The notes beneath the pieces were generated by a model that worked only from the letters and a program-made list of their open reading frames with translations, was not told where the DNA came from and ran no database searches. Shown in pieces: positions 17,368-34,700 of a stretch of 64,000 nucleotides of DNA (position 1 is its first letter; each line of letters opens with the position of its first letter). Location of the stretch: NCBI GenBank assembly GCA_963803805.1, contig CAWDOD010000007.1:64001-128000 (forward strand), written 5' to 3'. A program made the translations under genes and the position numbers. The stretch is from an uncultured cyanobacterium (lineage in GTDB: Bacteria > Cyanobacteriota > Cyanobacteriia > Cyanobacteriales > CAWCAG01).

Positions 17368-18924
17368 ATGGCAAAATTGACTAGCAAGGCTGCTTTAATA
17401 CTGAGCGTATTAACACTCACTACTTGGAGAGGAGAAGCAACTCAAGCGGCTGAACCCAGCTTAGGAAGTTCTTTCACCCAGTGGTGTCTCCAGAAAGATA
17501 ATTTGTCAACTGGAGCAATTAGAACTGTAGATGTACTGTTAGAAGAAGCAGGGACTACTGATTGTGAATCTGCTAATAACCTGTTATCAAGCCGCACCCA
17601 ACTTGACCTCAGCGACTCCGACATTATAGATGTCACGCCTTTAGCAGGGTTCACAAACTTAGAGTACCTCAATCTCAGCGATAACCAAGTTACAGATGTC
17701 ACTCCTTTAATCAGACTCACGAATTTAGAGGTACTTGACCTTGAATCTAACAAAATCACGAATGTTACTCCAATAGCCAGACTCACGAATCTATCGGGAC
17801 TCGGCCTCTATGCCAATAAAATCAGAGATGTCACGCCTTTGGCTAAACTCACAAACCTAGAGGGGCTTTACCTTGGCAATAACAAAATCAAAGAAATAAG
17901 TTCTTTAGAACCGCTTACCAACCTGAAGATACTCAATCTCAGTTTCAATGAAGCTAAAGATATCAGTCCTATAGCAAAATTTACACAACTAGAGGAACTT
18001 TACCTTTACTCTAACCAAATCTCTGATATTAATTCTCTAACAAAACTTGCCAGTTTGAAAGTCCTCAACCTTGGCGAGAATCAGATCACAGATATCAGTT
18101 CTCTAGCAAAACTGACAAATCTAGACGAACTTGACCTCAGTTATACCCAAATCAAAGATTTCAGTTCTCTAGCAAAGCTTACATATTTAGAAAAACTTAG
18201 CCTCAACGGTAATCAAATCACGAATGTCAGTTTTCTAGCAAAACTGACAAATTTAGAGATGCTTAATATTGGGGACAACAAAATTATTGATTTTGCACCT
18301 CTAACTAAACTCACAAATCTAGAGTTTCTCAATCTTTATAGCAGCCAAACTACAAATCTTGCTCCTTTAGCAGGACTCACAAATCTTAAGAAGGTTATCC
18401 TTTGGGGCAGCGAAATTACTGATATCACTTTTTTAAGGGGACTTACCGATCTAGAGTATCTTGACCTCAGCTTTAATCAAATTGAGGATATCAGTATTCT
18501 GGCAGAACTGACAAATCTGAAAGAAGTTTACCTTCCAAGAAACAAAATCACTGATATTAATTCTTTGAGGGGACTTACTAATCTTGTGTCGCTTTCCCTT
18601 GGAGAACAGAAAATTACAGATGTTACCCCTTTGGCGAGACTCATAAATCTAGAAATACTTTCCCTCAACAATAATCAAATTAAAGATGTTACGCCTTTAG
18701 CAGGACTCATAAATCTAAAGACGCTTTTCCTCAACAATAATCAAATCGCAACTGTCAGTCCTCTCTCAGAATTAACTAATCTAGAAATACTTACCCTTCA
18801 CAGCAATCAAATTACAACTGTCAGCCCTCTATCAGGATTAACCAATCTAAATCGACTTGTCATTAGGGACAATCCCGTTACACAGCCAGTTTGTCCGATT
18901 AATAAACCTGTTTGCGTCTTTTAA
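17368..18924 (+). CDS. Exported internalin-like leucine-rich repeat protein
   Basis: Signal peptide; Cys cap SFTQWC...TTDC; about 19-20 repeats of 22 aa LxxLxLxxNxIxDxxPLxxLTN; C-terminal CP..C. Confidence 0.92.
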   Translation: MAKLTSKAALILSVLTLTTWRGEATQAAEPSLGSSFTQWCLQKDNLSTGAIRTVDVLLEEAGTTDCESANNLLSSRTQLDLSDSDIIDVTPLAGFTNLEYLNLSDNQVTDVTPLIRLTNLEVLDLESNKITNVTPIARLTNLSGLGLYANKIRDVTPLAKLTNLEGLYLGNNKIKEISSLEPLTNLKILNLSFNEAKDISPIAKFTQLEELYLYSNQISDINSLTKLASLKVLNLGENQITDISSLAKLTNLDELDLSYTQIKDFSSLAKLTYLEKLSLNGNQITNVSFLAKLTNLEMLNIGDNKIIDFAPLTKLTNLEFLNLYSSQTTNLAPLAGLTNLKKVILWGSEITDITFLRGLTDLEYLDLSFNQIEDISILAELTNLKEVYLPRNKITDINSLRGLTNLVSLSLGEQKITDVTPLARLINLEILSLNNNQIKDVTPLAGLINLKTLFLNNNQIATVSPLSELTNLEILTLHSNQITTVSPLSGLTNLNRLVIRDNPVTQPVCPINKPVCVF

Positions 18925-19981: not shown

Positions 19982-22196
19982 TTATTGGGTTACATAAGTA
20001 ATTGACAAAGTGGCCATTTCATTGGGCCTTACTTCTGACCGACTTCGTACCGGGCCCTCCGCCTCTACCTCTATTAAGATCCCCCAACAAACTGCTAATA
20101 ATATCCACAGCTTCATCTCCCCTAGTCTCCAAAACTCCCTTCCGTGTACCTCTTCCTCTAGCAATAGAGCGCAACTTCAACAAAGCATCCTTCATCGCAA
20201 CTTCACTAAAAATCACTAACACCTCTGAAACCGTAGTTTCTTCAGCTACAAAAACAAAGCTATCCTTATCAGGGTCAGGAAGTAGCAGAGTTTCCTTTGC
20301 CCCAATTTTATTAGCTGTCTCTGCATACTCTTCATCCCGCAACTCCTGAAGCGAAGAAAATTCGTTAGGATAAAGTACAAATAACTCCCCACGAGGGTCA
20401 ATTAAAATTGCGCTAACAAAGAGTTCCTTATCCTCATTATTAACAATCTTCAATTGAAAGAACTCGTTGAGAGGTATAGAGTTGGTATCCCCGCTTCCAC
20501 GTTGCTGAGAAGAAACAGAACAATATTGAGCCTCTTTTGTACAACTGCCCCGCGCAGTAAATGCTTCTCCTAATATCTCTTTACCGCTTTCGATTTGCAA
20601 CGTTACTCCTACATCTAAGTGAGAAGATCGACCATTAATGGTTGTAGAAATTAGCCTAGCAGCGAGGAGAGATCTTAGCTTGCTGTTAAGACGTTTAATG
20701 GCTTCTTCTATTGTCTCTCCTGCCTTGCCAAAAGAATCGGGGACTACCTCTAAAGCCGGGGAAAATAAGCCGATGCTGCCTTCTGAAGGAACTTCCTTTG
20801 CCCTAACTTGATCGCTATAGCTTGGTGTCATGCGACTGAGAATATACTGCACATTCTCCGGGTAGGGTTCTGCTGCTGTTTGATAGGGGATTGCTTTGAG
20901 GCGTTTTAAGTTTGCAATTGCTTCCCCGGCCGTACTCGCATCTGCCCCTAATGAAGGGTCAAGACCAATTTTCAGCATAAACTCAGCAGGAATAGTCCGT
21001 GCAAACTCCTGTAATAAATCCCCTGGTTTAACATTACCTTCGAGGACTTTGTATCCTGCTTGCAAACCATTGCGAGAAGTTACTTCCACCTTGGCACTGG
21101 AAGAACTAACAAAAATTGCCCCCTCCCCACTAGCTTCTATGGCTTTGCTATCGACTCCTCCTAACCAAAGTTGGGGCTGATTACCTGGAGTGTTGATAAC
21201 TACTGCTTCTGTGGGGGCGACCTGAGATTCTAGTAGGTATACAGGCTGGTTTTGTAATGAAGCTGGTTGGGCTTCACTTTTGGCTATCTGATTTAAAGCC
21301 AGGAGAGCTAAATTACCATTAATCAAGTCAATAGTCTTATCTACATCTGTACTTTGTTGCCAAAGGGATTGAGTAAGTAGATAGGTAAACGCCCCAGCAT
21401 GAAACTCAGGGAAATTATAATCAGCAGCAAGTTGGTTGCGTCGTGCTGATGAAATCGCAACCCCTGTGGCTATACCTTTTTGCCTAAGTTCGGAAAATTC
21501 TGAGGAAGTTAACTTCAAATCTTTTAACAAGCGTTCCTGATATTCTCGCTCTTCGTCCCCAACTTGCTTACCTTCTCCATCTACAGCACGGATTTTAACG
21601 TTGCCCCTTGTCCCCCCTCCAGAATGACAACTATCTAAAACTACAGTTACATTTTCGGTTTTTTGCTTCAACGCATACATGAGAAGAAAGAGGGTGCGTC
21701 CGGTGATATCATTAACCACCTCCTCTTCTAAATCAGATGAGTCATCAGAGGGAACAAAAGTGCTGTTGCGGCGATATTCTGGGTCAGGAGATTCAGGATC
21801 AGCTACTTCCGAACCATGACCAGAAAAATGGAAAACCACCACATCTCCTGGTTTAGCTTGGGCGATTAAATGTTCCTTAAAAGCAGTTAGAATCCCCTGG
21901 CGAGTAGCCTGTTGATCTGTAATAGTCAGGATGTCCTTTGCTTGGAAGCCGAAGCGGTGCATTAAAAGATGTTTTTGTAGTTCTGTATCTTGGACACAAC
22001 CTAAGAGTTGACCAAAACGTTCTGTCTTAGGATAATTATTAATCCCCACCAATAGGGCAAGCTTACGGGGTGTATTCTGAGCTAAAACTTTACCATAACG
22101 AAGGCTTTGGCTTTGCAGTTCAAACTTGCTTAAGCCCAGAGTAGCTAATGCAGAACCAGCAAATTGTAAAAAGTGACGGCGCTTAATCTTTGTCAT
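19982..22196 (-). CDS. Caspase-family (ortho/metacaspase) protease with Tat signal and C-terminal DUF4384-like domain; probable 1-nt insertion near 20053
   Basis: KRRHFL Tat motif; ALLVGINNY, HFSGHGS, LDSCHSGG catalytic His/Cys; removing one base at GGGCCCGG extends the C-terminus to ...EMATLSITYVTQ (stop at 19982). Confidence 0.88.
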
Positions 22197-22339
22197 ATTA
22201 TTTTCTCCTTTAACTAGATAAATAACCTAATCTATATTTCTTAATTTCTCATCAAGTTGTACTGATTTTTTCATTTATAAAAATATATCGTTAAATTGGC
22301 GTTGCTGAATGAGTAATGATTTAGGTGATCGCAGGAACA

Positions 22340-22467
22340 GTAGTTCATCAATTTCTGTAATTTTAGGTATCTCTTCTTCTTCAGATATATCTGGTAGTTC
22401 CACTCCCGCTTCCTCAATCGAGTTCATGATTGTCGTATGGTGAATTTCTGTAACTCGTTCAATTCCT
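22340..22467 (-). pseudogene. IS1-family transposase internal fragment
   Basis: Minus strand translates GIERVTEIHHTTIMNSIEEAGVELPDISEEEEIPKITEIDEL, typical of cyanobacterial IS1-type transposases; no start or end. Confidence 0.75.
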
Positions 22468-22563
22468 CATTTTCAAAACTACGACGCTTTTTCATGTCTC
22501 ATTTGAAAATGCTATATGCTTCAGCATCATTTATAAAATTTTTGGTATGGGAGCAACTCAATG

Positions 22564-22725
22564 GGGAGCATCTCAAATTGGTAAATATAGGCTCTGGCCG
22601 TTGACTTGATGAACAAAAAGTTCAAAGAAGCAGCAATAAATGTATTCTTAAAGCTAAGAGCTAATAGCTAAGAGCTAATAGCTAACCTCACAGATCAACT
22701 GTTTCTGCAAAATTGAGATGCTCCC
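22564..22725. mobile_element. 162-bp MITE with 13-bp perfect terminal inverted repeats and 8-bp target-site duplication
   Basis: TIR GGGAGCATCTCAA...TTGAGATGCTCCC; ACTCAATG repeated at 22556-22563 and 22726-22733; internal AGCTAA(G/T/C) x5 at 22652-22686. Confidence 0.88.
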
Positions 22726-23245
22726 ACTCAATGTTCGTTTATTGTTTGTTTTTTAACTTATACAGCTTAATCCATACAGGTTATCAAAATAAATTTTGTA
22801 TCAATTTTGGCAATTGATACAAAATCTTCAAACCTGCCTCTTTTAGGTAATTTTACTCTCGATAATGCCAAGAAAATACTTTGAGCAAGGAATAAACTGA
22901 AAAATTTATTCCTTGCGACAACATTAACGCACACATCAGCTTTTTAGTATTAATTTAGCGTTCTTGAGAGAAAAACAACTTTTGAGAAACCGACTAAAAA
23001 GTCTGAAATACTTTGCAAACGCATTGCGTATTTATAGATCATTTCTCTTTATTGAGTGCTAGACTTTGCTCCCTTTTAAGTTGCTTTAGGGAAGGGGAAA
23101 AGTCATGTTTGTATCTACAGCAAAATTTTTGGTAATTGATATTATCACACAGTCTTATTTAGTCGGTAACGCCATAAATCAAATCCTATCCTTTTCAAAC
23201 CTAAAACACTCAGCATTTACGCAAACGTATTCTTGGTAAGTAAAT

Positions 23246-25696
23246 ATGGCACGTCAAACCTCTAAAAATACAACCAAACTATATTGGCTTTTCCTCAGTA
23301 CTGCTTTGATAGTCAGTGGCAACTTCCGGTTAATTGCTCCTGTTATAGCTGGTACTCAAGCTGGTCAAGAGATTAAAAACACTGCGACGGCAACTTATCT
23401 AGATCCTACAAATCCTCTCAATATTATTAATGCAACTTCTGACACTATCACCATAACCGTAGCGGAGGTTTCAGGTGTTACCGTCACTAATGCTGGTGTT
23501 ACCGATAGTAATGGTGGCAAAATTGCACGGAATGATGAGATTTTTTATGATTACACCGTTACCAACGTAGGTAATGACCCAACTCAATTGTTTATCCCCG
23601 ACGAAGATAATATCAATATCAACGGCCCTGGTACTATCACCTCTGTAGATGCAGACTTAGATGGGGATGGCACATTTGAAACACAAGTTCCTACTGGCGG
23701 ACTAACTACCACTACTCTTGTTGCTGCTGACGATTCAATTCAAGTAAGGGTAACAGTTACTGTTGATAGCAATGCTAACTCTGGAGAAACTATTGCTGTA
23801 CAACTTGGTAACACTCCAACTGATGATGGTACAAGCCAGCCTTTAGTAGATGACGGTGATAGCGACTTACAAACTATTGATGATAGTACTCCTACTCCAG
23901 TTAACGGTGAAAGTGAGACTAGCATCACTCAAGAAGCTACAGTGGAAGCTTCGCCGACAGCGTTAGCGAAAGTCCTCAAGACCCGAACTAACCACGATAA
24001 AGGAGATCCACTCGACATCACAGACGATGTTCTTAGCTATGCTCTTAGTTTACAGGTTGAATCTAGCGATCCCACAGGTACAGGGATCAATCCTGCACCT
24101 CTAGCTGGTATAGATATTAACGTTGATGGTATCGTTGAGGCTCATATCCTGATCTCTGATGCTATTCCTACAGGTACAGAATTAGAAGGTACAGCCGTTG
24201 CACCCAGTGGTTGGATTGCCGTCTATACCGATAGTCCCATTGCGACTGCTGCTGTAAATGTTAACTGGAGAACTAATCCTGCTGATTTAACTGGCCCTGT
24301 AACCCGTGTTGGTTTCATAAATGATACAGTAGCTACTGTTGCCACAGGTCAAACCGTTAGCGGTTTTAATCTCAATTTAGGGGTTATCGCCACGGCAACT
24401 TCACCTTTAAATGTAGCAAACATTGCCCAGGTATTTGGTGCTACTGATGGAGTTCCTGATATCATCATTTATGATGAATCTGGTGACCAAAATCCCAATA
24501 ACTACAACCCTGTTGATGGTACTGTAGATGGTTTCGATGCCCTTACTGACACAGGTTTACTTAATGCTTTAGATTTAACAGCCTTAACTGCTAGCGTCGG
24601 TATTGATACCAACAATAATAACACCGGTGATGGCCCTGGTGGTGAAGCTAGCTTTATTGAAATTGCTTTACCTGCTGTAGGGGATATCTTAAATGGACCC
24701 AAAGATGTTGCTGATGCTATCGGTCCAACGGATAGTAACGATGACTTTACTAACAAATCCACACCGATTATTAAATACACCAAACCTGGTTCTACTATTG
24801 ATCCTGATCCAGTAGACTTTATAAACACCTTTGTTAATACAAGTGGTCAGTCTGCTGATGTCACCTTAGAACCAGTTGCCCCCGCTAATCCCCTTGATCT
24901 ACCGGATCAAACTGTAGTTACCATCACCGCAGTAGATATTCTTACACCCACCAACCCGATTAAATCTGCTACTTACCGGTATGATCAAGCAACAGGAACC
25001 TTTACCCTCACCAATGGTACACCAATTGTCTTTAACAACCCTCTACCTCTAGTGGGTGGTCCTGGTAAAGGCGTACTTCCTAATGTTCCTGTTGCCTACA
25101 ACGTGGAGATCGACTTACCCAGTGATACACCTCTTTCTACCGATACCCTTGAAGATTATACTGGGGATACAGAATTTGGTTTCCCTGTGGGAATCGTCGC
25201 CAAACTAGACACTGACGGTAATGGCACTTTTGAAGCAGAAAATACCACCATCGACAGGGCTTACACCGGCTACCTCAAACTGGAGAAAACCTTCCAAATT
25301 CTCCAAGGAGATGGCCCTACAGTTAGTGATCCTACTGCTCCTCCTGCACCGGGTAACATCATTGAGTACACCGTCAAATACAGTAATATTTCCACTCCTG
25401 GCGGCGGTATAGGCAACATTGGCTTAAATGCAACCACGGTAATTATTACTGAAGATGGTGCTGATGCGGCTATTGAAAATAACTGGGCATTAGATAACGA
25501 TAGCAACGGTGAAATTGATACTAGCCATGTTGTGGGACAAGCAAGTGATAACAACGGCGGTATCGTTACGTACTTTGACCTTGGTGGTAGTGTTCTAGAT
25601 ACAGTAGGTGTAGATATTACAAGATATCTAGACACAATCTCTAATGTTGCCCCTGGTGCATCGGGTGAGTTTACCTTCCAACGCAAAGTCAATTAA
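23246..25696 (+). CDS. Secreted acidic Thr/Asp-rich multi-Ig DUF11-type protein; putative major filament subunit
   Basis: Signal peptide ending PVIA; DUF11-like motifs (VLKT..LSYAL..ISDAIP; LEKT..PGNIIEYTVKYSN); DxDxDG Ca-loop-like motifs. Confidence 0.75.
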   Translation: MARQTSKNTTKLYWLFLSTALIVSGNFRLIAPVIAGTQAGQEIKNTATATYLDPTNPLNIINATSDTITITVAEVSGVTVTNAGVTDSNGGKIARNDEIFYDYTVTNVGNDPTQLFIPDEDNININGPGTITSVDADLDGDGTFETQVPTGGLTTTTLVAADDSIQVRVTVTVDSNANSGETIAVQLGNTPTDDGTSQPLVDDGDSDLQTIDDSTPTPVNGESETSITQEATVEASPTALAKVLKTRTNHDKGDPLDITDDVLSYALSLQVESSDPTGTGINPAPLAGIDINVDGIVEAHILISDAIPTGTELEGTAVAPSGWIAVYTDSPIATAAVNVNWRTNPADLTGPVTRVGFINDTVATVATGQTVSGFNLNLGVIATATSPLNVANIAQVFGATDGVPDIIIYDESGDQNPNNYNPVDGTVDGFDALTDTGLLNALDLTALTASVGIDTNNNNTGDGPGGEASFIEIALPAVGDILNGPKDVADAIGPTDSNDDFTNKSTPIIKYTKPGSTIDPDPVDFINTFVNTSGQSADVTLEPVAPANPLDLPDQTVVTITAVDILTPTNPIKSATYRYDQATGTFTLTNGTPIVFNNPLPLVGGPGKGVLPNVPVAYNVEIDLPSDTPLSTDTLEDYTGDTEFGFPVGIVAKLDTDGNGTFEAENTTIDRAYTGYLKLEKTFQILQGDGPTVSDPTAPPAPGNIIEYTVKYSNISTPGGGIGNIGLNATTVIITEDGADAAIENNWALDNDSNGEIDTSHVVGQASDNNGGIVTYFDLGGSVLDTVGVDITRYLDTISNVAPGASGEFTFQRKVN

Positions 25697-25769
25697 GGCA
25701 TTTTGCTACACCAATTATTGTCGCCTACTTCCCTTCAAAGTACTAATTTGTAACTCACAGAGGTTTATT

Positions 25770-26327
25770 ATGAAACGTTTCTTCCTTAGTCTCAGCGCGA
25801 TCGCCCTTGTTGCTACAGTTCCAGTTTTAGCTAGTTCTCCAGTACAAGCTAGTATCCGTGAAGCAGGAACTAAAATTGCCCAATTTCTTGCTCGTCCTGA
25901 AGTTAAGTTAAACTTAGCCGCAGCTAAGCGTATGGTGAAAGTTGATGATTCTGGCAATGAACAGGTTAACTGGGAAGATATTGCCCAAGAAGCAACGGTT
26001 GTACCGGGGGATGTCCTCCGCTACACAGTCACTGGTGAAAATGCTGGTGATGCCACAGCCAACAACTTTGTGATCACCCAGCCTATTCCTACGCAAACCA
26101 TGTATGTTTTAGATTCAGCAGCTAGTAGTAATAGTGCCACTGTCACCTACAGCATTGATAACGGTACAACCTTCAGTGCAGAACCAACTATTCAAGTAGA
26201 TGATAACGGTACATTGATCGAGCAACCTGCACCGCCTGAGTCTTATACTCACGTTCGTTGGAGCTTTGAGCAGTCTCTAGTGGCTCAAGAAGAGGTGCAA
26301 GCTTCCTACGAAGTAACCATTAAGTAG
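25770..26327 (+). CDS. Small secreted single DUF11-domain protein
   Basis: ATG at 25770 after AGAGG; signal peptide MKRFFLSLSAIALV; VVPGDVLRYTVTGEN..ITQPIP..YSIDNG.TFS..YTHVRW. Confidence 0.85.
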   Translation: MKRFFLSLSAIALVATVPVLASSPVQASIREAGTKIAQFLARPEVKLNLAAAKRMVKVDDSGNEQVNWEDIAQEATVVPGDVLRYTVTGENAGDATANNFVITQPIPTQTMYVLDSAASSNSATVTYSIDNGTTFSAEPTIQVDDNGTLIEQPAPPESYTHVRWSFEQSLVAQEEVQASYEVTIK

Positions 26328-26463
26328 CAATAGAGAATCACATCAAATCCAGTGTGAATGGGGAACGGGGAACAGGTAATGGGCAATAGTTTTATCCCAA
26401 CTCCCCATCTCCCCATCTCCCCTTCTCCCTAAGCGCTTTAACTAGTTTGAAACTTACTTACCC

Positions 26464-27963
26464 ATGGAAAGAAACAAGCTGCTATTTTCAATTTCCTCTC
26501 AGCACAAGCTATCTACTTTCCTGAATCTTGTAGCAATCTTAGGCTTAGGAACAAGTTTAATAGGCATTGATGCCACCTTAGCTCAAGGTAACATTTCTTT
26601 CCAAAACCAAGCTACCTACACTTATCAAAACTCGGCTAACCAGACTCAGTTACAAGGAGTTTCTAATCAGATTGAAGTTAACACCCTCGACTCATCTTTA
26701 GTTGATCCTTTCGGGCAGGTTTTGGGTTGTAATGGTGAACCCTTGTTAGATTACACAGGCTTTTCCGTTAGCTTATATACTCCTGCTGCCAACGCAACCA
26801 CTGGGACAGAACTAGATCAGTTAGTTCCTTTAACGGCAACAGAGTTACCGGATGTAGCAGGTAATGACCTTACTCAAGGGGTAGAACCTAACATCAGCAA
26901 TGTTAATCCTTTTTCCCTTAGCAATACTACTCAAGGCAAGTATAGCTTCCTCTTAGATAGTAGTAAAGGACAACTGATACCAGGAACAAGCTATATTTTC
27001 GTAGTTAATCCCCCTACTAATTCTAACTATAGTCAGCGACGGGTCAAGATAGAAATACTAGCAAATAATAATGGGAAAGTCAGTTATAGAGCCAGTTCCC
27101 TAGATGGCCAACCTATTACCTCTCAAGGCCAAACTCAAATTGATGACACCCTGGTTAATATCTCTGAAGCCAACAAACAAGGTGTTATCCTAGCTGCTTT
27201 GCAACCTCAATTAGTACTGTGCAACCCTAATCAAATTGAAATTATTAAAACAGGGGATCGCGCTGTTGCTGGACCTGGAGATACGGTACTCTATCGTCTT
27301 ACAGTGAGAAGCAAATCTGATGCGACTCTCAACGCAATTAAGATTAACGATTATTTACCCCCTGGTTTTAAATTTTTACCTAATTCTGTGCGGGGTGAAT
27401 TTCAAGGGCAACCCCTTTCTATCAATGCTACTAACCATGGTAATGAGGTTGACTTTGAAATTGCAGCAAATCTCTCTCCCCAAGGTGTAATCAACCTTGT
27501 TTATGCGGCTCAACTTACTCCTGATTCTTTAAGGGGTTCCGGAGAAAATTCAGCAGTTGTGAATGCTAAGCGTCTTGACAACTCTTTCCAGGTTAAAAAT
27601 GGCCCGGTTATCCATCGTTTGCAAATCAATCCTGGCATTCTTTCTAGTTGCGGCACTTTGCTCGGTCGTGTCTTTGAAGACCATAACTTTGATGGTGAAC
27701 AACAGCCTGGTGAACCTGGCATCCCTAATGCAGTAATTGTGCTTGAGGATGGCAACCGTATCACTACAGATACTAACGGCTTATTTTCCGTGGCTTCGGT
27801 ACTTCCTGGCTATCACACAGGAACTCTGGATCTTACTAGTGTACCTGATTATACTATTGCTCCCAATCACTATTTCCGCGAACGCAATAGCCTCTCACGC
27901 TTAGTTAATCTGGCTCCTGGTGGCATGGTTCGCATGAATTTTGCTGTTACTAAAACAAATTAG
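26464..27963 (+). CDS. Secreted DUF11 + SdrD-B/CnaB-like domain protein
   Basis: Signal peptide; IIKTGDR..PGDTVLYRL..INDYLPPGF; GRVFEDHNFDGEQQPGEPGIPNA SdrD-B-like motif. Confidence 0.85.
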   Translation: MERNKLLFSISSQHKLSTFLNLVAILGLGTSLIGIDATLAQGNISFQNQATYTYQNSANQTQLQGVSNQIEVNTLDSSLVDPFGQVLGCNGEPLLDYTGFSVSLYTPAANATTGTELDQLVPLTATELPDVAGNDLTQGVEPNISNVNPFSLSNTTQGKYSFLLDSSKGQLIPGTSYIFVVNPPTNSNYSQRRVKIEILANNNGKVSYRASSLDGQPITSQGQTQIDDTLVNISEANKQGVILAALQPQLVLCNPNQIEIIKTGDRAVAGPGDTVLYRLTVRSKSDATLNAIKINDYLPPGFKFLPNSVRGEFQGQPLSINATNHGNEVDFEIAANLSPQGVINLVYAAQLTPDSLRGSGENSAVVNAKRLDNSFQVKNGPVIHRLQINPGILSSCGTLLGRVFEDHNFDGEQQPGEPGIPNAVIVLEDGNRITTDTNGLFSVASVLPGYHTGTLDLTSVPDYTIAPNHYFRERNSLSRLVNLAPGGMVRMNFAVTKTN

Positions 27964-28033
27964 GCAAAAGTCTATAGGCAATAAGCAAAAGTAATTACCT
28001 ATTTAAAATTATTTACCTTGAGGGGAAAGAGTT

Positions 28034-31000
28034 ATGCTCTACTCTGATGTATTAAAGACAAGTAAGGGGAAAAATTTAGTTGTACTGTCGGCAATACTGA
28101 TAGGAAGTGTTAACTCACTTTGCGCCCCTCAAATAGCCCAAGGACAGGAATATGTAGAAATTATTCCTGAAACAAAGACAGCAACTCAGTTTGTAGAATC
28201 AGAAACAATAACGTCAGAAACTGTTTCCAACCCAATAGATGAGACAAAGGAAATCGACCTTCCTAATAACAATGCTTCTGAAAAGACTACATCAGCAGTC
28301 AGCATCCTTTCTCCTACAGTTAACAGCATTTTAGATCAACCGGCCGTCACAGTAGTGGTTCAGTATCCTAGGGATGCTGAAATAGAACTAAGAGTTAATG
28401 GACAACCAGTAGATCCTAAACTAATCGGTCGCACAGAAACTAACTCTGCTACGCAATTAATTACCCAGACGTGGTATGCTGTGCCTCTCCAGGCAGGAAC
28501 TAACAGTCTCAGTGCCAACTTATTAGGTCAGCCAGAAACCTTAACTACCACTAGTTTACAAGTAAGAGGACAGCCAAGTGAACTAATGGTCGCCACTAGG
28601 GAAACAAGTATAGATGCTGATGCCCGCTCTACAGCGATAGTGCAAGGTCAATTACAAGACGATAATGGTAACTTAGCTAATTGGGATGGTACTGTCACCC
28701 TAAGTACCAGTGCTGGAGAGTTTGTAGAACCAGACCAAGACTTACAACAACCCGGTTTTCAAGTCAAAGTCACAGATGGTAAATTCCGCACTATCTTACG
28801 CTCAACTTTAGAAGCCCAAACTGTCACTATTCGCGCTAACACCAGAGAGTTAGAAGCCTATACTCAACTACAATTTAAAACTGCATTGCGTCCTAGCTTA
28901 GTTTCTGGAGTTGTTAACATCCGTTTGGGAGCTGGTGGTACAGATTTCTACGATAGTTTCCAAGACTTCCTACCCTTAGATGAGGATGATGATTTTGTCT
29001 TAGATTTTAGTAGCGCTGTCTTTGCTACTTTTCCCATCGGTGAATGGCTATTCACCGGGGCTTATAACAATCAACGCCCCCTTAACCTTGATTGCAATTG
29101 TGACAATCGTCTCTTTCGCAATTATCAAGCCTCAGAAAACCAGTATCCTATCTACGGTGATGATTCTACTTCGGAAATTCTCGCCCCTTCTATAGATAGT
29201 CTCTATTTGCGTCTAGAACGCTCCTCTCCTGTGGTAGGAGCCGCGCCAGATTATGTCATGTGGGGAGACTATAACACCTCAGAGTTTGCAAACCCTTCCC
29301 AATTTTTCACCGCAACAACTCGCCAACTCCACGGCTTTAAAGGCAATTATAATTTAGGCAATCTCCAAGTTAGTGGCTTCTATGCCAACAACACTGAAGG
29401 TTTCCAAAGAGACATTCTCAACCCCGACGGTACTAGCGGCATCTATTTTCTCTCCCAAAGATTGCTAGTTCCTGGTAGTGAGGATGTCTTTATTGAATTA
29501 GAAGAATTAACCCGCCCTGGAACAGTTCTGCAACGAGAACGATTAAGCCGGGGTGCAGATTACGAGATTGATTATGATCGAGGAACGTTGAATTTCCGTG
29601 AACCGCTGTTGCGTACTGATATCGATGCAGAGGGGAATATTTTAGTACGCCGACTAGTGGTTAGTTATCAGTTTGAAGATGGCGGAGAAGATACTAAACT
29701 TTATGGCGGTAGACTGCGCTATCATCTTTCCCGGAATTTAAACCAGGAAAGCTGGTTGGGCGCTACCTATCTTAAGGAGGAACAGGGTGTGCGGGACTTT
29801 GAACTGTACGGTGCAGATGTTTTGCTTTCTCTAGGAGAAAAGGGACGTTTTACCGGTGAATATGCCCATTCTCGCCATAATTCTCCAGAGTTAGGTGCTA
29901 CTGCTGGTTCGGCTTATCGTTTACTTCTAGAAGGGGAAGTAAGTACAGGAATTGCTGGCCGGGCTACTATCAATCCACTGATAATGGTTTTGCTAACCAA
30001 GCAACGGCAAGTTTTGTTCCTGGACAAACTCGTTACGGTGCAGAGTTGCAAGCCCGCCTTTCCCCAAATACTCAATTGAGGGCCAAATATGACCAGGAAA
30101 GTAATCAAGGTAATAACCAGCAAATTCTCACTCCCATCGGTAATGTGCTAGAAGGGTACACCTTAGAAGGTAGTTTAGATAGCTTTCAATCCCAAACTGA
30201 GGTAAATAATTCCCTCACCACCATTTCCCTGGGAGTGCAACAAAAAATTTCTACTGCTACTTTAGATTTTGATTGGATTTATCGCCAACGGGAAGACCAA
30301 ATTAATCCTAATCTAAATAGTAATTCCCAACAGTTGCGATCGCGATTAAGCCTACCCTTAACAGATAATCTTACTTTCCGAGCGCTCAATCAATTAACCT
30401 TAAGTGAACAGACTGATGCTGTTTACGGCGATCGCACTGCTGTAGAGTTAGATTGGCAATTTCTTCCTGGTGTTAATCTCCTATTAGGACAAAATTGGTA
30501 TACGAAAGGGACGCTTGCTGGTAGTTCCATTACTAGTTTGAGTTTGCAGGGTGATTATAATTTTAGTCCTAATACTCGCTTAACAGGGCGCTACAGCCTT
30601 TTAGGGGGTGAGAATGACTGGACGGGACACGGGGCAATAGGATTACAGCATGACTGGCAACTTACCCCTGGTTTAAAGCTTAATCTGGCCTACGAACGGA
30701 TTTTTGGTAACTTTGGCAGCAATGTTATTGGCACAGGAATTAATCAACAATCCCTGACTACAGGTAGCAATAGTTCTGTTTTAGGAGTCACAGAGGGCAA
30801 TAGCTACAGTGTGGGTTTAGACTATGCCAGCGATCCTAACTTTCAATTCTCAGCTAACTGGCAACATCGTTCCTCATCCCAAGGCAGCAACACAGTTATT
30901 TCTGCTTCTGCCCTTGGTAAAATTACCCCCAGTTTATCAGCTTTGTTAGATTTCCATCACGCTAGTTCTACTAGTCCGGCTCTGAGTGGCTTAGGAAGTT

Positions 31001-31527
31001 CGACAGATTTAAAGCTGGGTCTAGCTTTCCGCGATCCCCACAGTGATGAATTTAACGCTTTGCTTAAGTACGAATATCGTCGCAACCCTGCCACCATTCC
31101 TGATACTATTTTATTCGGCAGTGGTACAGGATCTCAAGAACATCTTTTCTCCGCTGAAGCGATTTATGCTCCTAATTGGCAGTGGGAATTTTATGGTAAG
31201 TATGCTTTCCGTACTAGCACTACCTATTTAGCGAATGATTTTGTTGCTAACTCTATAGTTTCCCTAGCACAGCTAAGGGCTACTTATCGCCTTGGTTATA
31301 GTTGGGATTTAGTAGGAGAGGCACGCTGGATCACTCAACCCACAGCCGGCTACAGTGAAACTGGCTTTCTTCTGGAAACGGGTTACTATCTAACCTCTAA
31401 TTTACGCTTGGCAGCAGGTTACTCTTTAGGGGATATTAGTGATCGAGATTTTAGTGGTTCTCGTTCTGCTGGTGGCCCTTATGTGAATCTTACTCTGAAA
31501 TTCGATGATCTTTTCTTTGGGAATTAA
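28034..31527 (+). CDS. Large outer-membrane beta-barrel protein with N-terminal Ig/invasin-like domains (about 1160 aa), split by a 1-nt deletion near 29963
   Basis: Signal peptide; YPIYGDDS and DYEIDYDRG motifs; amphipathic beta strands to C-terminal LTLKF; adding one base at CGGGCTAC gives continuous GRAYYQSTDNGFANQATASFVPGQTRYGAELQARL. Confidence 0.8.
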
Positions 31528-31768
31528 GCATTGGACATAAATTACAATGTCTTTTGAAACATACAACATCAAGATAGTAGCCTATCCTTCTTGAGCATTG
31601 ACATTTAACACTAACAAAAAATCAAAAATATACACAGGAGAATCTAAACTTTCTCAAAGAGAAGGTAACTAATATTTAGTTTGGGAGGTAAAATGCTGGT
31701 TATCTCTCAAAACCAAAAATTAGGTCAATGTCTGCTTAGTATGACCTCAAATTCTCTGAGATTAATTA

Positions 31769-34700
31769 ATGAGAAGCCACCAGCAGAGCCGCAAATTCAG
31801 TTTTCAACCATTGAAGCTCTCAGCAACCTTATCAAAAAGGCTGCATCAGAGCTTATTCGTGATCCCTGCAATCATTACTAGTACCAGCTTTTATTCCCCT
31901 CTAGTTAGCGCCCAGTCTATTATTAGGGAAGCAAACAGTACAGGAACGATAGTTAACCAACAAGGTGATATTTATCAGATTGAGGGTGGAACTCAAGCAG
32001 GAAGTAACTTATTCCATAGTTTTACTCAACTAGGGCTACAACAAAATGAAATAGTTAACTTTCTCTCCCAACCTCACATCAATAATATTCTGGGCAGGGT
32101 AACTGGCGGTAATATTTCTGTAATTGAAGGATTAATTCAGGTTAGTGGTAGTAACGCTAACCTCTTTTTAATGAATCCGGCTGGCATTATCTTTGGTAGC
32201 AATGCCAGATTAGATGTACCAGGGAGTTTCACTGCCACAACAGCCAATGCTATTGGTTTTGAGGGGGGTTGGTTTCAATCTTTGGGGGAGAATGAGTATC
32301 AAAGCTTAATAGGTTCACCTACCAGCTTTGCTTTCGGTAATGGGCAAACGGGAGGAATAGTTAACCAAGGAGATTTAACGGCTGCTAACCTCAGCCTAAT
32401 TGGTGGGACAGTAATTAATACAGGCAACCTCAATGCCCCAGGAGGAAATATTACTATAACCGCAGTGCCTGGGGGCAAAATGGTACGACTTTCTCAACAG
32501 GGAATGATTTTAGGATTAGAAGTACCAGAAGATGCGATCGCCAATGGTATAACTCCCTTAGATTTACCAAAACTATTAACCACACCCGTAGAAGGAATAA
32601 CCGAAATAGCTAAAGGGGATACAGTTGTTAGTGGTAGTGTAGTTGCAGATACCGTTAACCTTGGTGCAGTGAACCCTATTAAGTTGGGAAGCAATGGTCA
32701 AATAATTACGGGGAATAGTAAGTTTAGCACTCCTACAGTAACCATATTCCCAGCAAGTGAAACAGATCCTCTTGCTTACATCTTCCTAGATGCCACAGTA
32801 CCAGATTATCAAAGCTTTCTCTACAACGGCAAACCAGGTTCAACTACGGTGGTGGTAACGCCCGAAGAAAGGGGGATTTCAGTTGTTAGTGATAAGTTAG
32901 CAACTAGTCAACAGGTTGATGAGATACATATTGTTTCTGAGGGGAATCAGGGGAACTTTTGGTTAGGTAGGGACTTTGTAAGTAGTGAGAATGTTGGGCA
33001 GTATGAGACTCAGTTGCAGGGTTGGCAAGACGCTTTGAGTGTGGGGGCAGATATTTTAATTTATGCTTGTTTAGCTGCTTTGGGAGAAGCTGGGGACAGT
33101 TTGTTAAATCAGGTTGCTGATTATACTGGGGCGGATGTGGCCGGTTCGACGAATATTACCGGGGCAACGAGTTTAGAGGGAGATTGGCAGTTAGAGAAGA
33201 GTTTGGGGCCGATTGAGGCAGACTTAGCTTGGCAGCAAGAGATAGTTGAGAGTTACAACCATAAGTTGCAGTTATTTACTGTCACTAATGCTAATGATGC
33301 GGGTGGGGGTTCGTTGCGTGAAGCTATTAATAGTACAGCAGCTTTAGCGGGTGCTGATGAAATTCGCTTTAGTAATAATTTTACCATTAACCTGGCTTCT
33401 GGGGAATTAGCGATCGCAGGGCAGGAGTTAACTATTGATGGAGGAGTTAATAGCATTGTTGTTGATGGAGGTAAGCAATTGCGTATATTTAATATTAGCA
33501 ACGGTGCAGAGGTTACTCTCAACAATTTAACTATTCAGAATGGTAACGCGGCTGATTCTGGGGGCGGTATACGCAACCAAGATAGTAGTTTGAGGATAAC
33601 TAATAGCAACATTACTAATAATTTTTCTGCTGATGACGGTGGGGGAATTTTTAGTGTAGGGCAAAACGGTAATATAGCCACGTTAGAAGTTGTTAATAGT
33701 ACGATTTCTAGTAATCGGGCTGATGGTAGTGGTGGCGGTATTTCCAGTTTGGCTTTGAATGGTGGCACGGCGATCGCGACAGTAAGCAATGCTGGGATTT
33801 TTAGAAATACTTCTTTAGAAATTGGCCTTGGTGGTGGTGGTGTTGCGGCTGAAGCAATAGGAGGAGGTTCGACTTCTACATTCAACTTAACTAATACTAC
33901 TATCTCCGGTAATAGTAGCGTAGACAATGGTGGTGGTGTTTCTAATCGAGGGACTGAATCGGGGCAATCTACAATGGCAATTAGTAACAGTACTATATCC
34001 AATAACCAAGGAACAGGAAGTAGCTTTGATGGCGGTGGTGGGGTTGCTAATGAGTCTTTTCTTAATGGTAATGCAGTACTAACTATAACCAATAGTGAAA
34101 TTTCTAATAATACTAGCGATAGTCAAGGTGGTGGTGGTGTAATTAATTGGGGAAACCTTACTGGTAGCACAACAGTAGATATTACCAACACTACTATCTC
34201 TGGAAACTCTACTAATAATAGAGGCGGTGGTATTTTCAACTTAGTGCAAGGTGATGCTACTAGTAGTTTGAATGTTTCTGATGTCACTATTAATAACAAC
34301 ACTGCTGCTAGCGATGGTGGGGGAATTTTGAGTTTAGTTTTGGATGGTGGTACTACTGTTGTAACAGTAAGCAATGCTGGAATGTCTGACTAATACTTCT
34401 TCTGGTGGTGTAGCTGGTGGTGGTGCGATCGCAGCCGAAGGAAATGGACATAAATTCTACTTCTACATTCACTTTAACCAATAGTACTATTTCTGGTAAT
34501 AGTACCACAGACAATGGTGGTGGTGTTTCTAATGTTGCTACAAATTCTGGTAATTCTACAATGGAAATTATTAGTAGCACTATCTCTAATAATCAAGCAA
34601 CAAATAATGGTGGCGGAGGGGTCGCTAATGAGTCATTCAATGATGGCAATGCCGTACTAAACATAACAGACAGCGATATTTCTAATAATACTAGCAATAG

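Follow-up and report, generated by a model that had tools for sequence, protein, structure and literature searches.

A split CnaA-like domain as the proposed joint of a self-ligating surface fibre in cyanobacteria

The window analysed here, a stretch of 64,000 nucleotides from an uncultured cyanobacterium, encodes a secreted protein of 816 amino acids in which a single immunoglobulin (Ig)-like domain is divided between the two ends of the chain. The last domain of this protein, referred to below as the major or shaft subunit, stops before its final two β-strands, and the strands that it lacks are present directly behind the signal peptide. Both pieces are homologous to one continuous domain in unsplit relatives, and both are conserved together with three residues ordered as in domains that form isopeptide bonds, namely Lys681 and Glu736 in the C-terminal domain and Asn45 in the N-terminal strands. 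The gene belongs to an operon that is kept in related genomes, and the two pieces dock onto each other in a structural model. Joining of shaft subunits in trans through this split domain, resulting in a covalent fibre, is considered a fairly probable explanation of the arrangement.

According to the proposed mechanism, the protein would act as the shaft subunit of a surface fibre on a diderm cyanobacterium. The Ig-like domain at its end, of CnaA/DUF11-like character, is interrupted in the loop ahead of the final two strands, which instead follow the signal peptide directly. Once exported, one subunit would insert its N-terminal strands into the open C-terminal domain of another, a step that would rebuild both the whole domain and the head-to-tail domain order of unsplit giant adhesins. 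Asn45 of the incoming chain would thereby be placed beside Lys681 and Glu736 of the receiving chain, and a Lys-Asn isopeptide bond would form spontaneously with loss of NH3, yielding a covalent joint without the aid of a sortase. The donor end of the fibre would be capped by an acceptor-only protein, either the small protein p2 encoded directly downstream or, in other genomes, a large adhesin-like protein whose end domain is truncated in the same way, and the acceptor end by the donor-only protein p3. Finally, an outer-membrane protein of ~1,160 amino acids, translationally coupled to p3, would export or root the fibre. From the observations set out below we infer joining in trans rather than in cis, formation of the bond, the length and polarity of the polymer, and the parts that p2, p3 and the outer-membrane protein would play.

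The split domain and its unsplit relatives

The major subunit consists of a signal peptide, the donor strands, Ig-like domains including one of the DUF7925 family, and the truncated acceptor domain (Table 1). The signal peptide was read from the sequence, and the position of the cut is backed by the tiling of the mature protein on its unsplit homologues. All nine motifs named in a previous reading of this DNA from its letters alone (the sequence-only reading) were located in the 816-residue open reading frame (ORF) by a scripted check. In the donor segment, which holds the strands that the C-terminal domain is without, GTQAGQEIKNTATATY occupies residues 36-51 (nucleotides 23351-23398) and SDTITITV residues 65-72; VLKT (243-246), ISDAIP (303-308), FNLNLGV (374-380) and VANIAQ (390-395) belong to the internal domain; and LEKT (679-682; nucleotides 25280-25291), ITEDG (734-738) and FTFQRKVN (809-816), the latter directly followed by the stop codon, belong to the last domain. 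Both the positions given in that reading and its statement that the chain ends before the Asn strand are therefore accurate. The residues of interest in the acceptor domain are Lys681 (codon 25286-25288), Glu736 (codon 25451-25453) and the adjacent Asp737.

Evidence that the two ends are parts of one domain comes from relatives in which the domain is continuous. Alignment A3 (35 sequences), which covers the C-terminal 160 residues, was turned into a profile and searched against 1.84 billion cluster representatives, 315 of which matched at E ≤ 1e-3. Classification covered 149 listed matches, the window's own protein being excluded; 139 of these contain the end of the domain, and 10 matches end early. 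The protein stops no more than three residues past the domain end in 100 of the 139, carries a short Pro/Thr/Asn-rich tail of 4-25 residues in 28, and extends further in 11, where the domain is internal. A homologue of the donor segment lies directly behind the domain in 10 of these 11 proteins, and the eleventh has a junk tail in this place. The junctions read, for example, ...FQRQVN followed by QTTAGQLITNTANATYEDPNNP, or ...FIFQRQVN followed by QTTAGQLITNTANATYEDPNNPGSVINNTSNPINVTIPELAGITV, behind which the protein runs on into a homologue of the first domain of the shaft; the domain order in unsplit relatives is hence the preceding domain, the split-type domain and then the first domain. 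Two unsplit ORFs of 2451 and 2711 amino acids were found in genomes of the window's own order, and their junction is free of stop codons at the DNA level.

Alignment A4 has one unsplit domain as its reference, with which the C-terminal domain of the window protein shares 50% identity and residues 36-80 of this protein share 51%. The final residue of the shaft and the residue that follows the predicted signal peptide take neighbouring columns, no reference residue lying between them; the N-terminal rows had been begun at a conserved GTxAG by choice, on which the exact abutment partly depends and the co-linearity does not. Since the ends of the shaft tile the unsplit domain, together they make up a single domain whose chain is interrupted in the loop that precedes the last two strands. 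The proposal that the mature N-terminus is the piece missing from the C-terminal domain, made in the sequence-only reading, is borne out by these homologues. When the 47-residue N-terminal segment was compared directly with the closing strands of the internal domain and of the DUF11 domain in p3, neither match was significant (hhalign P 0.09 and 0.57, respectively). The two giant ORFs of 2451 and 2711 amino acids are those at L083 (G230:C1:2429780-2434585) and L085 (G023:C1:1823861-1827985); they encode long multi-domain proteins with the unsplit domain inside, and the representative sequences show Chlam_PMP- or β-helix-like repeats. The existence of unsplit giant ORFs suggests that the pilin arose from, or gave rise to, the stalk of a fibrillar adhesin.

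Conservation was assessed over the window and 80 species-level genome loci (n = 81). N45, K681, I43, Y51 and Y708 are present in all 81 sequences; position 736 is Glu in 79 and Asp in two, position 737 is Asp in 77 and Asn in four, and A47 and A49 of the donor strand are kept in 80 and 79, respectively. A C-terminus of the xRxxN type ends 78 of the 81 shafts, with short extensions in the other three. Among representatives at 50% identity, the equivalent of K681 is Lys in 125 of 128 and Thr in three, all of them unsplit proteins, and the equivalent of E736 is Glu in 120 and Asp in six of 128. The N-terminal Asn motif is present in 73 of 74 full-length split proteins and replaced by Ser in one. 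Loss of the Lys is thus seen in 3 of 10 unsplit and in none of ~118 split proteins (Fisher p 3.5e-4, kin not being independent), and Lys, Glu and Asn have been jointly lost in one unsplit protein. The internal triad K245/D305/N392 is found in 80, 81 and 81 of the 81 sequences and in 32, 34 and 33 of a more diverse set of 36. In two of these 36 homologues (P0008 and P0033, alignment A1), the internal Lys, Asp and Asn are all lost and N45, K681 and E736 are kept; the joint loss of the three internal residues indicates that the internal triad is one functional unit. Judging by these alignments, the terminal Lys, Glu and Asn vary less than the internal triad, and conservation of the three residues, which the sequence-only reading had named as a check on its proposal, has come out in its favour.

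The internal triad itself is already known at the level of prediction. The match to PF25546 (DUF7925) covers residues 240-420 (E 1.9e-62; 210.8 bits versus a cut-off of 26.5) and profile positions 1-185 of 185. It is the sole Pfam match of the shaft protein, in which Pfam detected no TasA or camelysin family. In the accessible part of its account, a survey of intramolecular isopeptide bonds reports the creation of DUF7925, with a predicted Lys264-Asp326-Asn415 bond in the seed sequence Q8YS00, a Nostoc protein (PMC12617251). Homologues of the major subunit at E ≤ 1e-5 numbered 1166 among 8000 candidates scored; among the 120 homologues listed, all carry PF25546, cover 97-100% of the query and are cyanobacterial where named. 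The gene is present in a single copy in its own genome. Of 401 genomes sampled from the phylum, 44 contain the family, which has 308 relatives among species-level genomes.

A CnaA-type β-sandwich fold of the completed domain is supported by modelling of an unsplit relative. The AlphaFold2 model of this domain (205 residues, 57 alignment rows) reached a predicted template modelling score (pTM) of 0.83 and a mean predicted local distance difference test score (pLDDT) of 83.4, with values of 64-79 for the donor strands. Structural comparison by VIA-align placed BcpA on top (Z 12.4, root-mean-square deviation 2.2 Å over 131 residues), along with C-terminal domains of antigen I/II (Z 11.6-12.0), Ig-like domains of PrgB (Z 11.8) and RrgB (2x9z, Z 10.9); the top matches span model residues ~7-199 and so include both parts of the domain. 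Foldseek retrieved the collagen-binding domains 7lgr and 1amx among its matches. The available text of the isopeptide survey lists 2X9Z (RrgB), 7LGR and 3OPU as reference CnaA-like isopeptide domains (PMC12617251). At the sequence level, residues 36-235 gave chance-level Pfam matches only at E ≤ 10, and a sequence search of the PDB with the C-terminal domain returned no match at E ≤ 10. Profile-profile comparison (hhalign) of the C-terminal domain with the internal DUF7925 domain, the p2 domain and the p3 DUF11 domain gave P values of 0.009, 0.0037 and 0.0049, and in all three of these weak alignments E736 falls on the catalytic Asp, or on the Gln of p2. The nearest named clusters in the ESM Atlas are likewise DUF11 (score 0.90), which serves as a lead only.

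Docking of the two ends and the operon partners

Pairing of the N-terminal strands with the C-terminal domain, as claimed in the sequence-only reading, finds support in a complex model in which residues 36-235 and 640-816 were entered as separate chains, each with an alignment of 36 rows. The interaction prediction score from aligned errors (ipSAE) was 0.86 (0.87, 0.86 and 0.86 in individual runs), and the best of three controls reached 0.03. Among solved complexes, 116 of 157 attain the mark applied to this score, as against 2 of 215 mismatched pairs; the counts are a rough yardstick, our own alignment having been used. The runs share at least 90% of their contacts, and the pLDDT of the partner is 86-91. 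In the model, strand 729-736 runs antiparallel to residues 47-52, N45 contacts Y708 and A47 contacts E736. The donor contributes residues 36-38, 40-55, 57, 61, 63-68 and 70-75 to the interface, and the acceptor residues 673-683, 698-712, 727-738, 809 and 815-816, including its first strand (677-683). Residues 36-38 and 815-816 both being located at the interface is what would be expected if the cut loop were re-formed.

Of 80 loci, 77-80 share the order major subunit, p2, p3 and outer-membrane protein, and none of the other neighbours of the window operon recurs in the 80 related loci. p2, present in 80 of 80 loci, matches Pfam DUF11 (E 2.9e-6, profile positions 8-89 of 114) as well as TIGR01451; its DUF11 domain begins right behind the signal peptide and stops before the Asn strand. 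On the 186-residue translation from 25767 that was used for numbering p2, the Lys is conserved in 80 of 81 sequences, and the position of the catalytic acid is occupied by Gln in 79 of 81. p2 might accordingly bind a donor strand without bonding to it, as a cap or holding factor. p3 is also found in 80 of 80 loci, with N48, Q49, A50, Y52 and Y54 of its donor-like strand each conserved in 80 of 81 sequences and K, D and N of its internal domain each in 80 of 81; the N-termini of p3 and of the major subunit are homologous (hhalign probability 85%, E 6.5e-6). The gene for the outer-membrane protein, the start of which overlaps the end of p3, is a single ORF of 1154-1337 amino acids in five reference loci and has relatives in 78 of 80 loci; its Pfam matches are weak only (Invasin_D3, Big_1, Porin_4 and OMP_b-brl).

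Behind the outer-membrane gene, a sixth gene is found in 46-53 of the 80 loci. It encodes an acceptor-only protein of ~700-1370 amino acids with a variable N-terminus and an end domain of the pattern LLVKR...CDRIP...YGFVRFRGRVK, which is cut before the Asn strand and is homologous to p2 (probability 85%); its comparison with the C-terminal domain of the shaft is weak (hhalign P 0.017). As p2 and the sixth-gene proteins carry no donor segment and p3 has no open domain, these proteins can be completed only by another chain. The sixth gene is absent from the window operon, where a gene with a two-partner secretion (TPS) domain occupies its place. In the same genome, on the minus strand of G000:C2:1247243-1253465, two genes (L092 and L094) resemble the sixth-gene family. 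They contain LLLVKRIT and LALVKRIT, respectively, then EYTIYFL and EYTVYFL, and CDAIP, and they end in ...VSFRVKVN and ...FVRFRVQIE; at least one of them is split over two overlapping frames. These genes may encode the missing tip proteins of the window system at a distance from the operon.

Table 1. Positions of the major subunit, its parts and the operon partners
Feature	Position	Strand	Remarks
Major subunit gene	23246..25696	+	ORF, 816 aa; secreted
Predicted Sec signal peptide, residues 1-35, cut after PVIA	23246..23350	+	Hydrophobic segment, then small-x-small site
Donor segment, residues 36-80, two β-strands IKNTATATY and SDTITITV	23351..23485	+	N45 codon 23378-23380
Internal complete DUF7925 domain, triad Lys245/Asp305/Asn392	23963..24505	+	Pfam PF25546
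C-terminal acceptor domain, ~residues 670-816	25253..25693	+	Ends after FTFQRKVN, without Asn strand
p2, acceptor-only small subunit	25770..26327	+	Signal peptide and one DUF11 domain, no donor segment
p3, donor-only subunit, 499 aa	26464..27963	+	ISFQNQATYTY donor-like strand, complete DUF11, SdrD_B-like C-terminal domain
Large outer-membrane protein, ~1,160 aa	28034..31527	+	Candidate export pore and anchor
Sixth-gene examples in related loci	L002:18962-21739, L005:19200-21890, L012:18519-22049, L039:18559-21402		Candidate tip adhesin

Known assembly enzymes were sought in the window's own genome, which is 97.4% complete. No matches were obtained there for Sortase (PF04203) or Usher (PF00577), the controls behaving as expected, nor for PapD_N (PF00345), for which the control was positive in E. 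coli and D. radiodurans. The shaft protein contains no LPxTG-like motif ([LIV]Px[TSA]G) and ends in ...FTFQRKVN. The sortase-free assembly put forward in the sequence-only reading agrees with the lack of sortase families in this genome. A promoter and terminator scan of positions 22100-32000 yielded fewer sites than in shuffled sequences and none that was usable. Among public runs matching the operon, no RNA run is listed, and the single DNA run is probably the source sample.

Directly downstream of the operon, at 31769-34393 on the plus strand, lies the gene mentioned above, the 874-residue product of which combines a TPS secretion domain (E 3e-40) with DUF4347 (E 1.7e-45) and, to judge from its domains, is a two-partner-secretion exoprotein; it is found there in 0 of 80 loci. 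Upstream, a caspase-like protein of 725 amino acids with Peptidase_C14 and DUF4384 domains (20019-22196, minus strand) and a leucine-rich-repeat protein of 518 amino acids with a leader (17368-18924, plus strand) are encoded, neither of which is kept beside the operon in the 80 loci. A full operon of the cyanobacterial type, at 45% identity, is also present on a contig titled as an uncultured Acetobacteraceae metagenome-assembled genome (L018, CAZZZY010000029.1), which is likely to reflect a binning error rather than transfer.

Joining in trans and its alternatives

Several observations weigh against covalent joining in trans. Pfam returned zero families, DUF11 among them, at E ≤ 10 for residues 657-816, so that the DUF11 label given to the last domain in the sequence-only reading lacks confirmation by a family model; it is backed by profile-profile ties to DUF11-type domains, which are weak (probabilities 3-9%), by the language-model features and by the fold comparison. 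The fold alone is unspecific: integrin leg domains (Z 11.0-11.5) and mu2 adaptin (Z 10.4) match the unsplit-domain model about as well as the isopeptide domains do, and because unrelated Ig-like domains score at similar Z, the fold class is supported and the specific family is not. Complete CnaA-type domains have been solved, and the docking score may therefore partly reflect likeness to a whole domain. N45, K681 and E736 are all interface residues of the complex model, but the pair K681-N45 is not among its 25 least-error contacts, and a model of two chains cannot distinguish trans from cis. The Gln in place of the catalytic acid implies that at least the joint with p2 may not be covalent. 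The analysis identified no periplasmic chaperone to block premature assembly. Finally, the outer-membrane gene of the window falls into two ORFs that overlap (28034-30079 and 30046-31527) because of a one-base frame change near 29963 (29950-29970). In a contig of X1, the one public run with this DNA, an additional base behind 29963 brings the gene back into frame, at a word depth of 7.3, and the break is probably an assembly error. X1 is likely the sample of origin and hence not independent support.

Instead of a polymer, the operon might encode a defined three-part assembly, in which acceptor-only p2 or a tip adhesin, one shaft and p3 as the anchor are joined and the ends of the shaft are not mutual partners in vivo. 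The presence of exactly one protein per role in the operon fits such an assembly, and conservation of the p3 donor strand (NQATYTY) and of the p2 acceptor would lead one to expect heterotypic joints. Yet it is the N-terminus of the shaft, not that of p3, that is closest (51-71% identity) to the stretch behind the domain in unsplit proteins, and the shaft scores highly when paired with itself. The possession of donor and acceptor by the same protein is, moreover, a hallmark of polymerising pilins, as exemplified by chaperone-usher pili. The three-part assembly is hence regarded as unlikely.

A further alternative retains joining in trans and dispenses with the bond: subunits would be held together by donor-strand complementation alone, as in chaperone-usher pili, and Lys, Glu and Asn would be kept for packing or hydrogen bonding only. 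Donor-strand joints are very stable even without covalent bonds, and p2 has no catalytic acid. According to the accessible parts of two reports, oligomers of the BsaA variant N35A, from a system discussed below, withstand SDS until heated (PMC11580942), and isopeptide bonds are missing from some DUF11 domains (PMC12617251). Purely structural roles are difficult to reconcile, however, with a triad that is invariant or nearly so in split proteins and under stricter constraint than that of the internal domain, with the restriction of Lys replacement to unsplit relatives, one of which is without all three residues, and with the alignment of E736 with the catalytic Asp of DUF11-type domains. A non-covalent fibre is accordingly given little credence.

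Equally improbable is closure in cis, listed in the sequence-only reading as a result that would refute its proposal, whereby the N-terminal strands of each chain would complete its own C-terminal domain and produce a circularly permuted monomeric adhesin, perhaps locked by a Lys681-Asn45 bond, without any polymer. The two-chain model is as compatible with this arrangement as with joining in trans, and for archaeal TafA, the available text of PMC11821415 proposes monomers that are closed by self-complementation. In the AlphaFold2 model of the monomer (781 residues; mean pLDDT 84.4), the first 30 residues of the mature protein are β-strands rather than a loose tail, which would fit a fold-back in cis and counts against the trans joint; at 66-72, however, their pLDDT is the lowest of the structured parts, and the overall pTM is 0.53. 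(A Foldseek search with the whole monomer returned generic multi-Ig matches, such as integrin legs, PrgB and antigen I/II, at TM 0.11-0.25 and was uninformative.) Closure in cis is harder to square with the operon, since donor-only p3 and acceptor-only p2, both present in 80 of 80 loci, as well as the sixth-gene acceptors, need another chain, and a monomeric adhesin would have no need of a dedicated outer-membrane protein of ~1,160 amino acids coupled to a donor-only protein. The domain order of unsplit relatives, too, corresponds to a linear stalk and not to a ring.

Relation to known systems and implications

Covalent joining in trans through the split domain would share features with several known systems. 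Like subunits of chaperone-usher pili (Fim, Pap), the window subunit has an incomplete Ig-like fold, as established by the tiling of its ends on unsplit domains and by the docking model, and the last part of the fold would be supplied by the N-terminal extension of a neighbour, the neighbour as the source being suggested by the operon. A proposed acceptor-only tip, a proposed terminator and an outer-membrane protein encoded in the operon add to the likeness. The window system differs in that two strands rather than one would be donated, donor and acceptor reside at opposite ends of a rod, and a covalent lock is predicted. SpyTag/SpyCatcher and isopeptag are engineered splits of CnaB and pilin domains, in which the strand bearing Asn or Asp is separated from the part bearing Lys and Glu and the two bond spontaneously. 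These are laboratory constructs derived from intramolecular domains, whereas the split in the window protein is natural and conserved, and is proposed to serve assembly.

The closest published mechanism is that of BsaA from Clostridium perfringens, a member of the TasA family, for which the accessible part of the report describes an "exchange and lock" process: N35 bonds to K74 of the next monomer, E56 catalyses the reaction, and mutants support the scheme (PMC11580942). There, as proposed here for N45, K681 and E736, an Asn of an N-terminal donor strand meets an acceptor Lys and Glu without a sortase. BsaA, however, consists of one TasA-like domain and comes from a Gram-positive bacterium, with a SipW peptidase and membrane anchoring, whereas the window subunit is a rod of five or so domains from a diderm, with a split CnaA/DUF11-like joint and a giant outer-membrane protein in its operon; and the lock of BsaA is backed by mutants, while the window system is known from sequence and models. 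Donor-strand complementation and an intermolecular isopeptide bond with no known sortase are likewise combined in the threads of Sulfolobus acidocaldarius, where, in the available text, the N-terminal amine of Asp24 of Saci_0406 is bonded to Asn57 of subunit n+2 (PMC9715654). These threads differ in having an unrelated fold and in belonging to an archaeon without an outer membrane. For Tafi, donor-strand fibres have been modelled in open and closed forms (PMC11821415). As far as the accessible portions of these reports go, neither BsaA nor the archaeal threads nor Tafi involves a CnaA/DUF11-type domain, a multi-domain subunit or an outer-membrane protein.

With the CnaA-like CLIPPER/DUF11 (PF01345, PDB 9IFR) and DUF7925 families, as presented in the available part of the survey (PMC12617251), the split domain has in common the fold class and the order Lys...Asp/Glu...Asn. 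In those families, the bond is formed within one chain and stabilises a stalk, whereas the window chain stops past the acid without reaching the Asn strand, so that a bond would join two chains; no split or intermolecular forms are described in the accessible text of that survey (PMC12617251). The unsplit relatives of the terminal domain, for their part, resemble ordinary stalk domains of fibrillar adhesins. The CT pilus of Microcystis (PMC12397347), which consists of a 12-kDa glycosylated pilin encoded in a different gene cluster, was set aside. No literature was found on this operon or on a split DUF11 or DUF7925 domain, in a search with thin coverage of subscription journals. Donor-strand exchange combined with an isopeptide lock is thus already known; what is new is the structural and cellular context.

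The joint may be representative of a widespread class of pili in diderm bacteria, a wider proposition for which the chances appear evenly balanced. Such pili would be built from self-ligating split-CnaA subunits, i.e., natural "tag/catcher" pairs, into a fully covalent extracellular fibre without sortase, PapD-type chaperone or usher; they would rely on a new giant outer-membrane portal or root, acceptor-only tips and a donor-only terminator, would have been born by cutting of a giant adhesin stalk, or the reverse, and would comprise several orthogonal natural ligation pairs. Covalent pili are, in textbook accounts, Gram-positive and sortase-dependent, whereas Gram-negative pili are non-covalent. 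If the proposed mechanism is true, this divide would be blurred, a new route of assembly at the outer membrane would be added, and a large set of proteins annotated as "hypothetical" or "beta strand repeat-containing" would be accounted for. Natural split pairs of differing partner specificity, the candidates being shaft-shaft, shaft-p2/tip and p3-shaft, might find use as protein-ligation tags, and the unsplit relatives would offer a rare readable case of the way in which a polymerising subunit can arise from a tandem-domain stalk.

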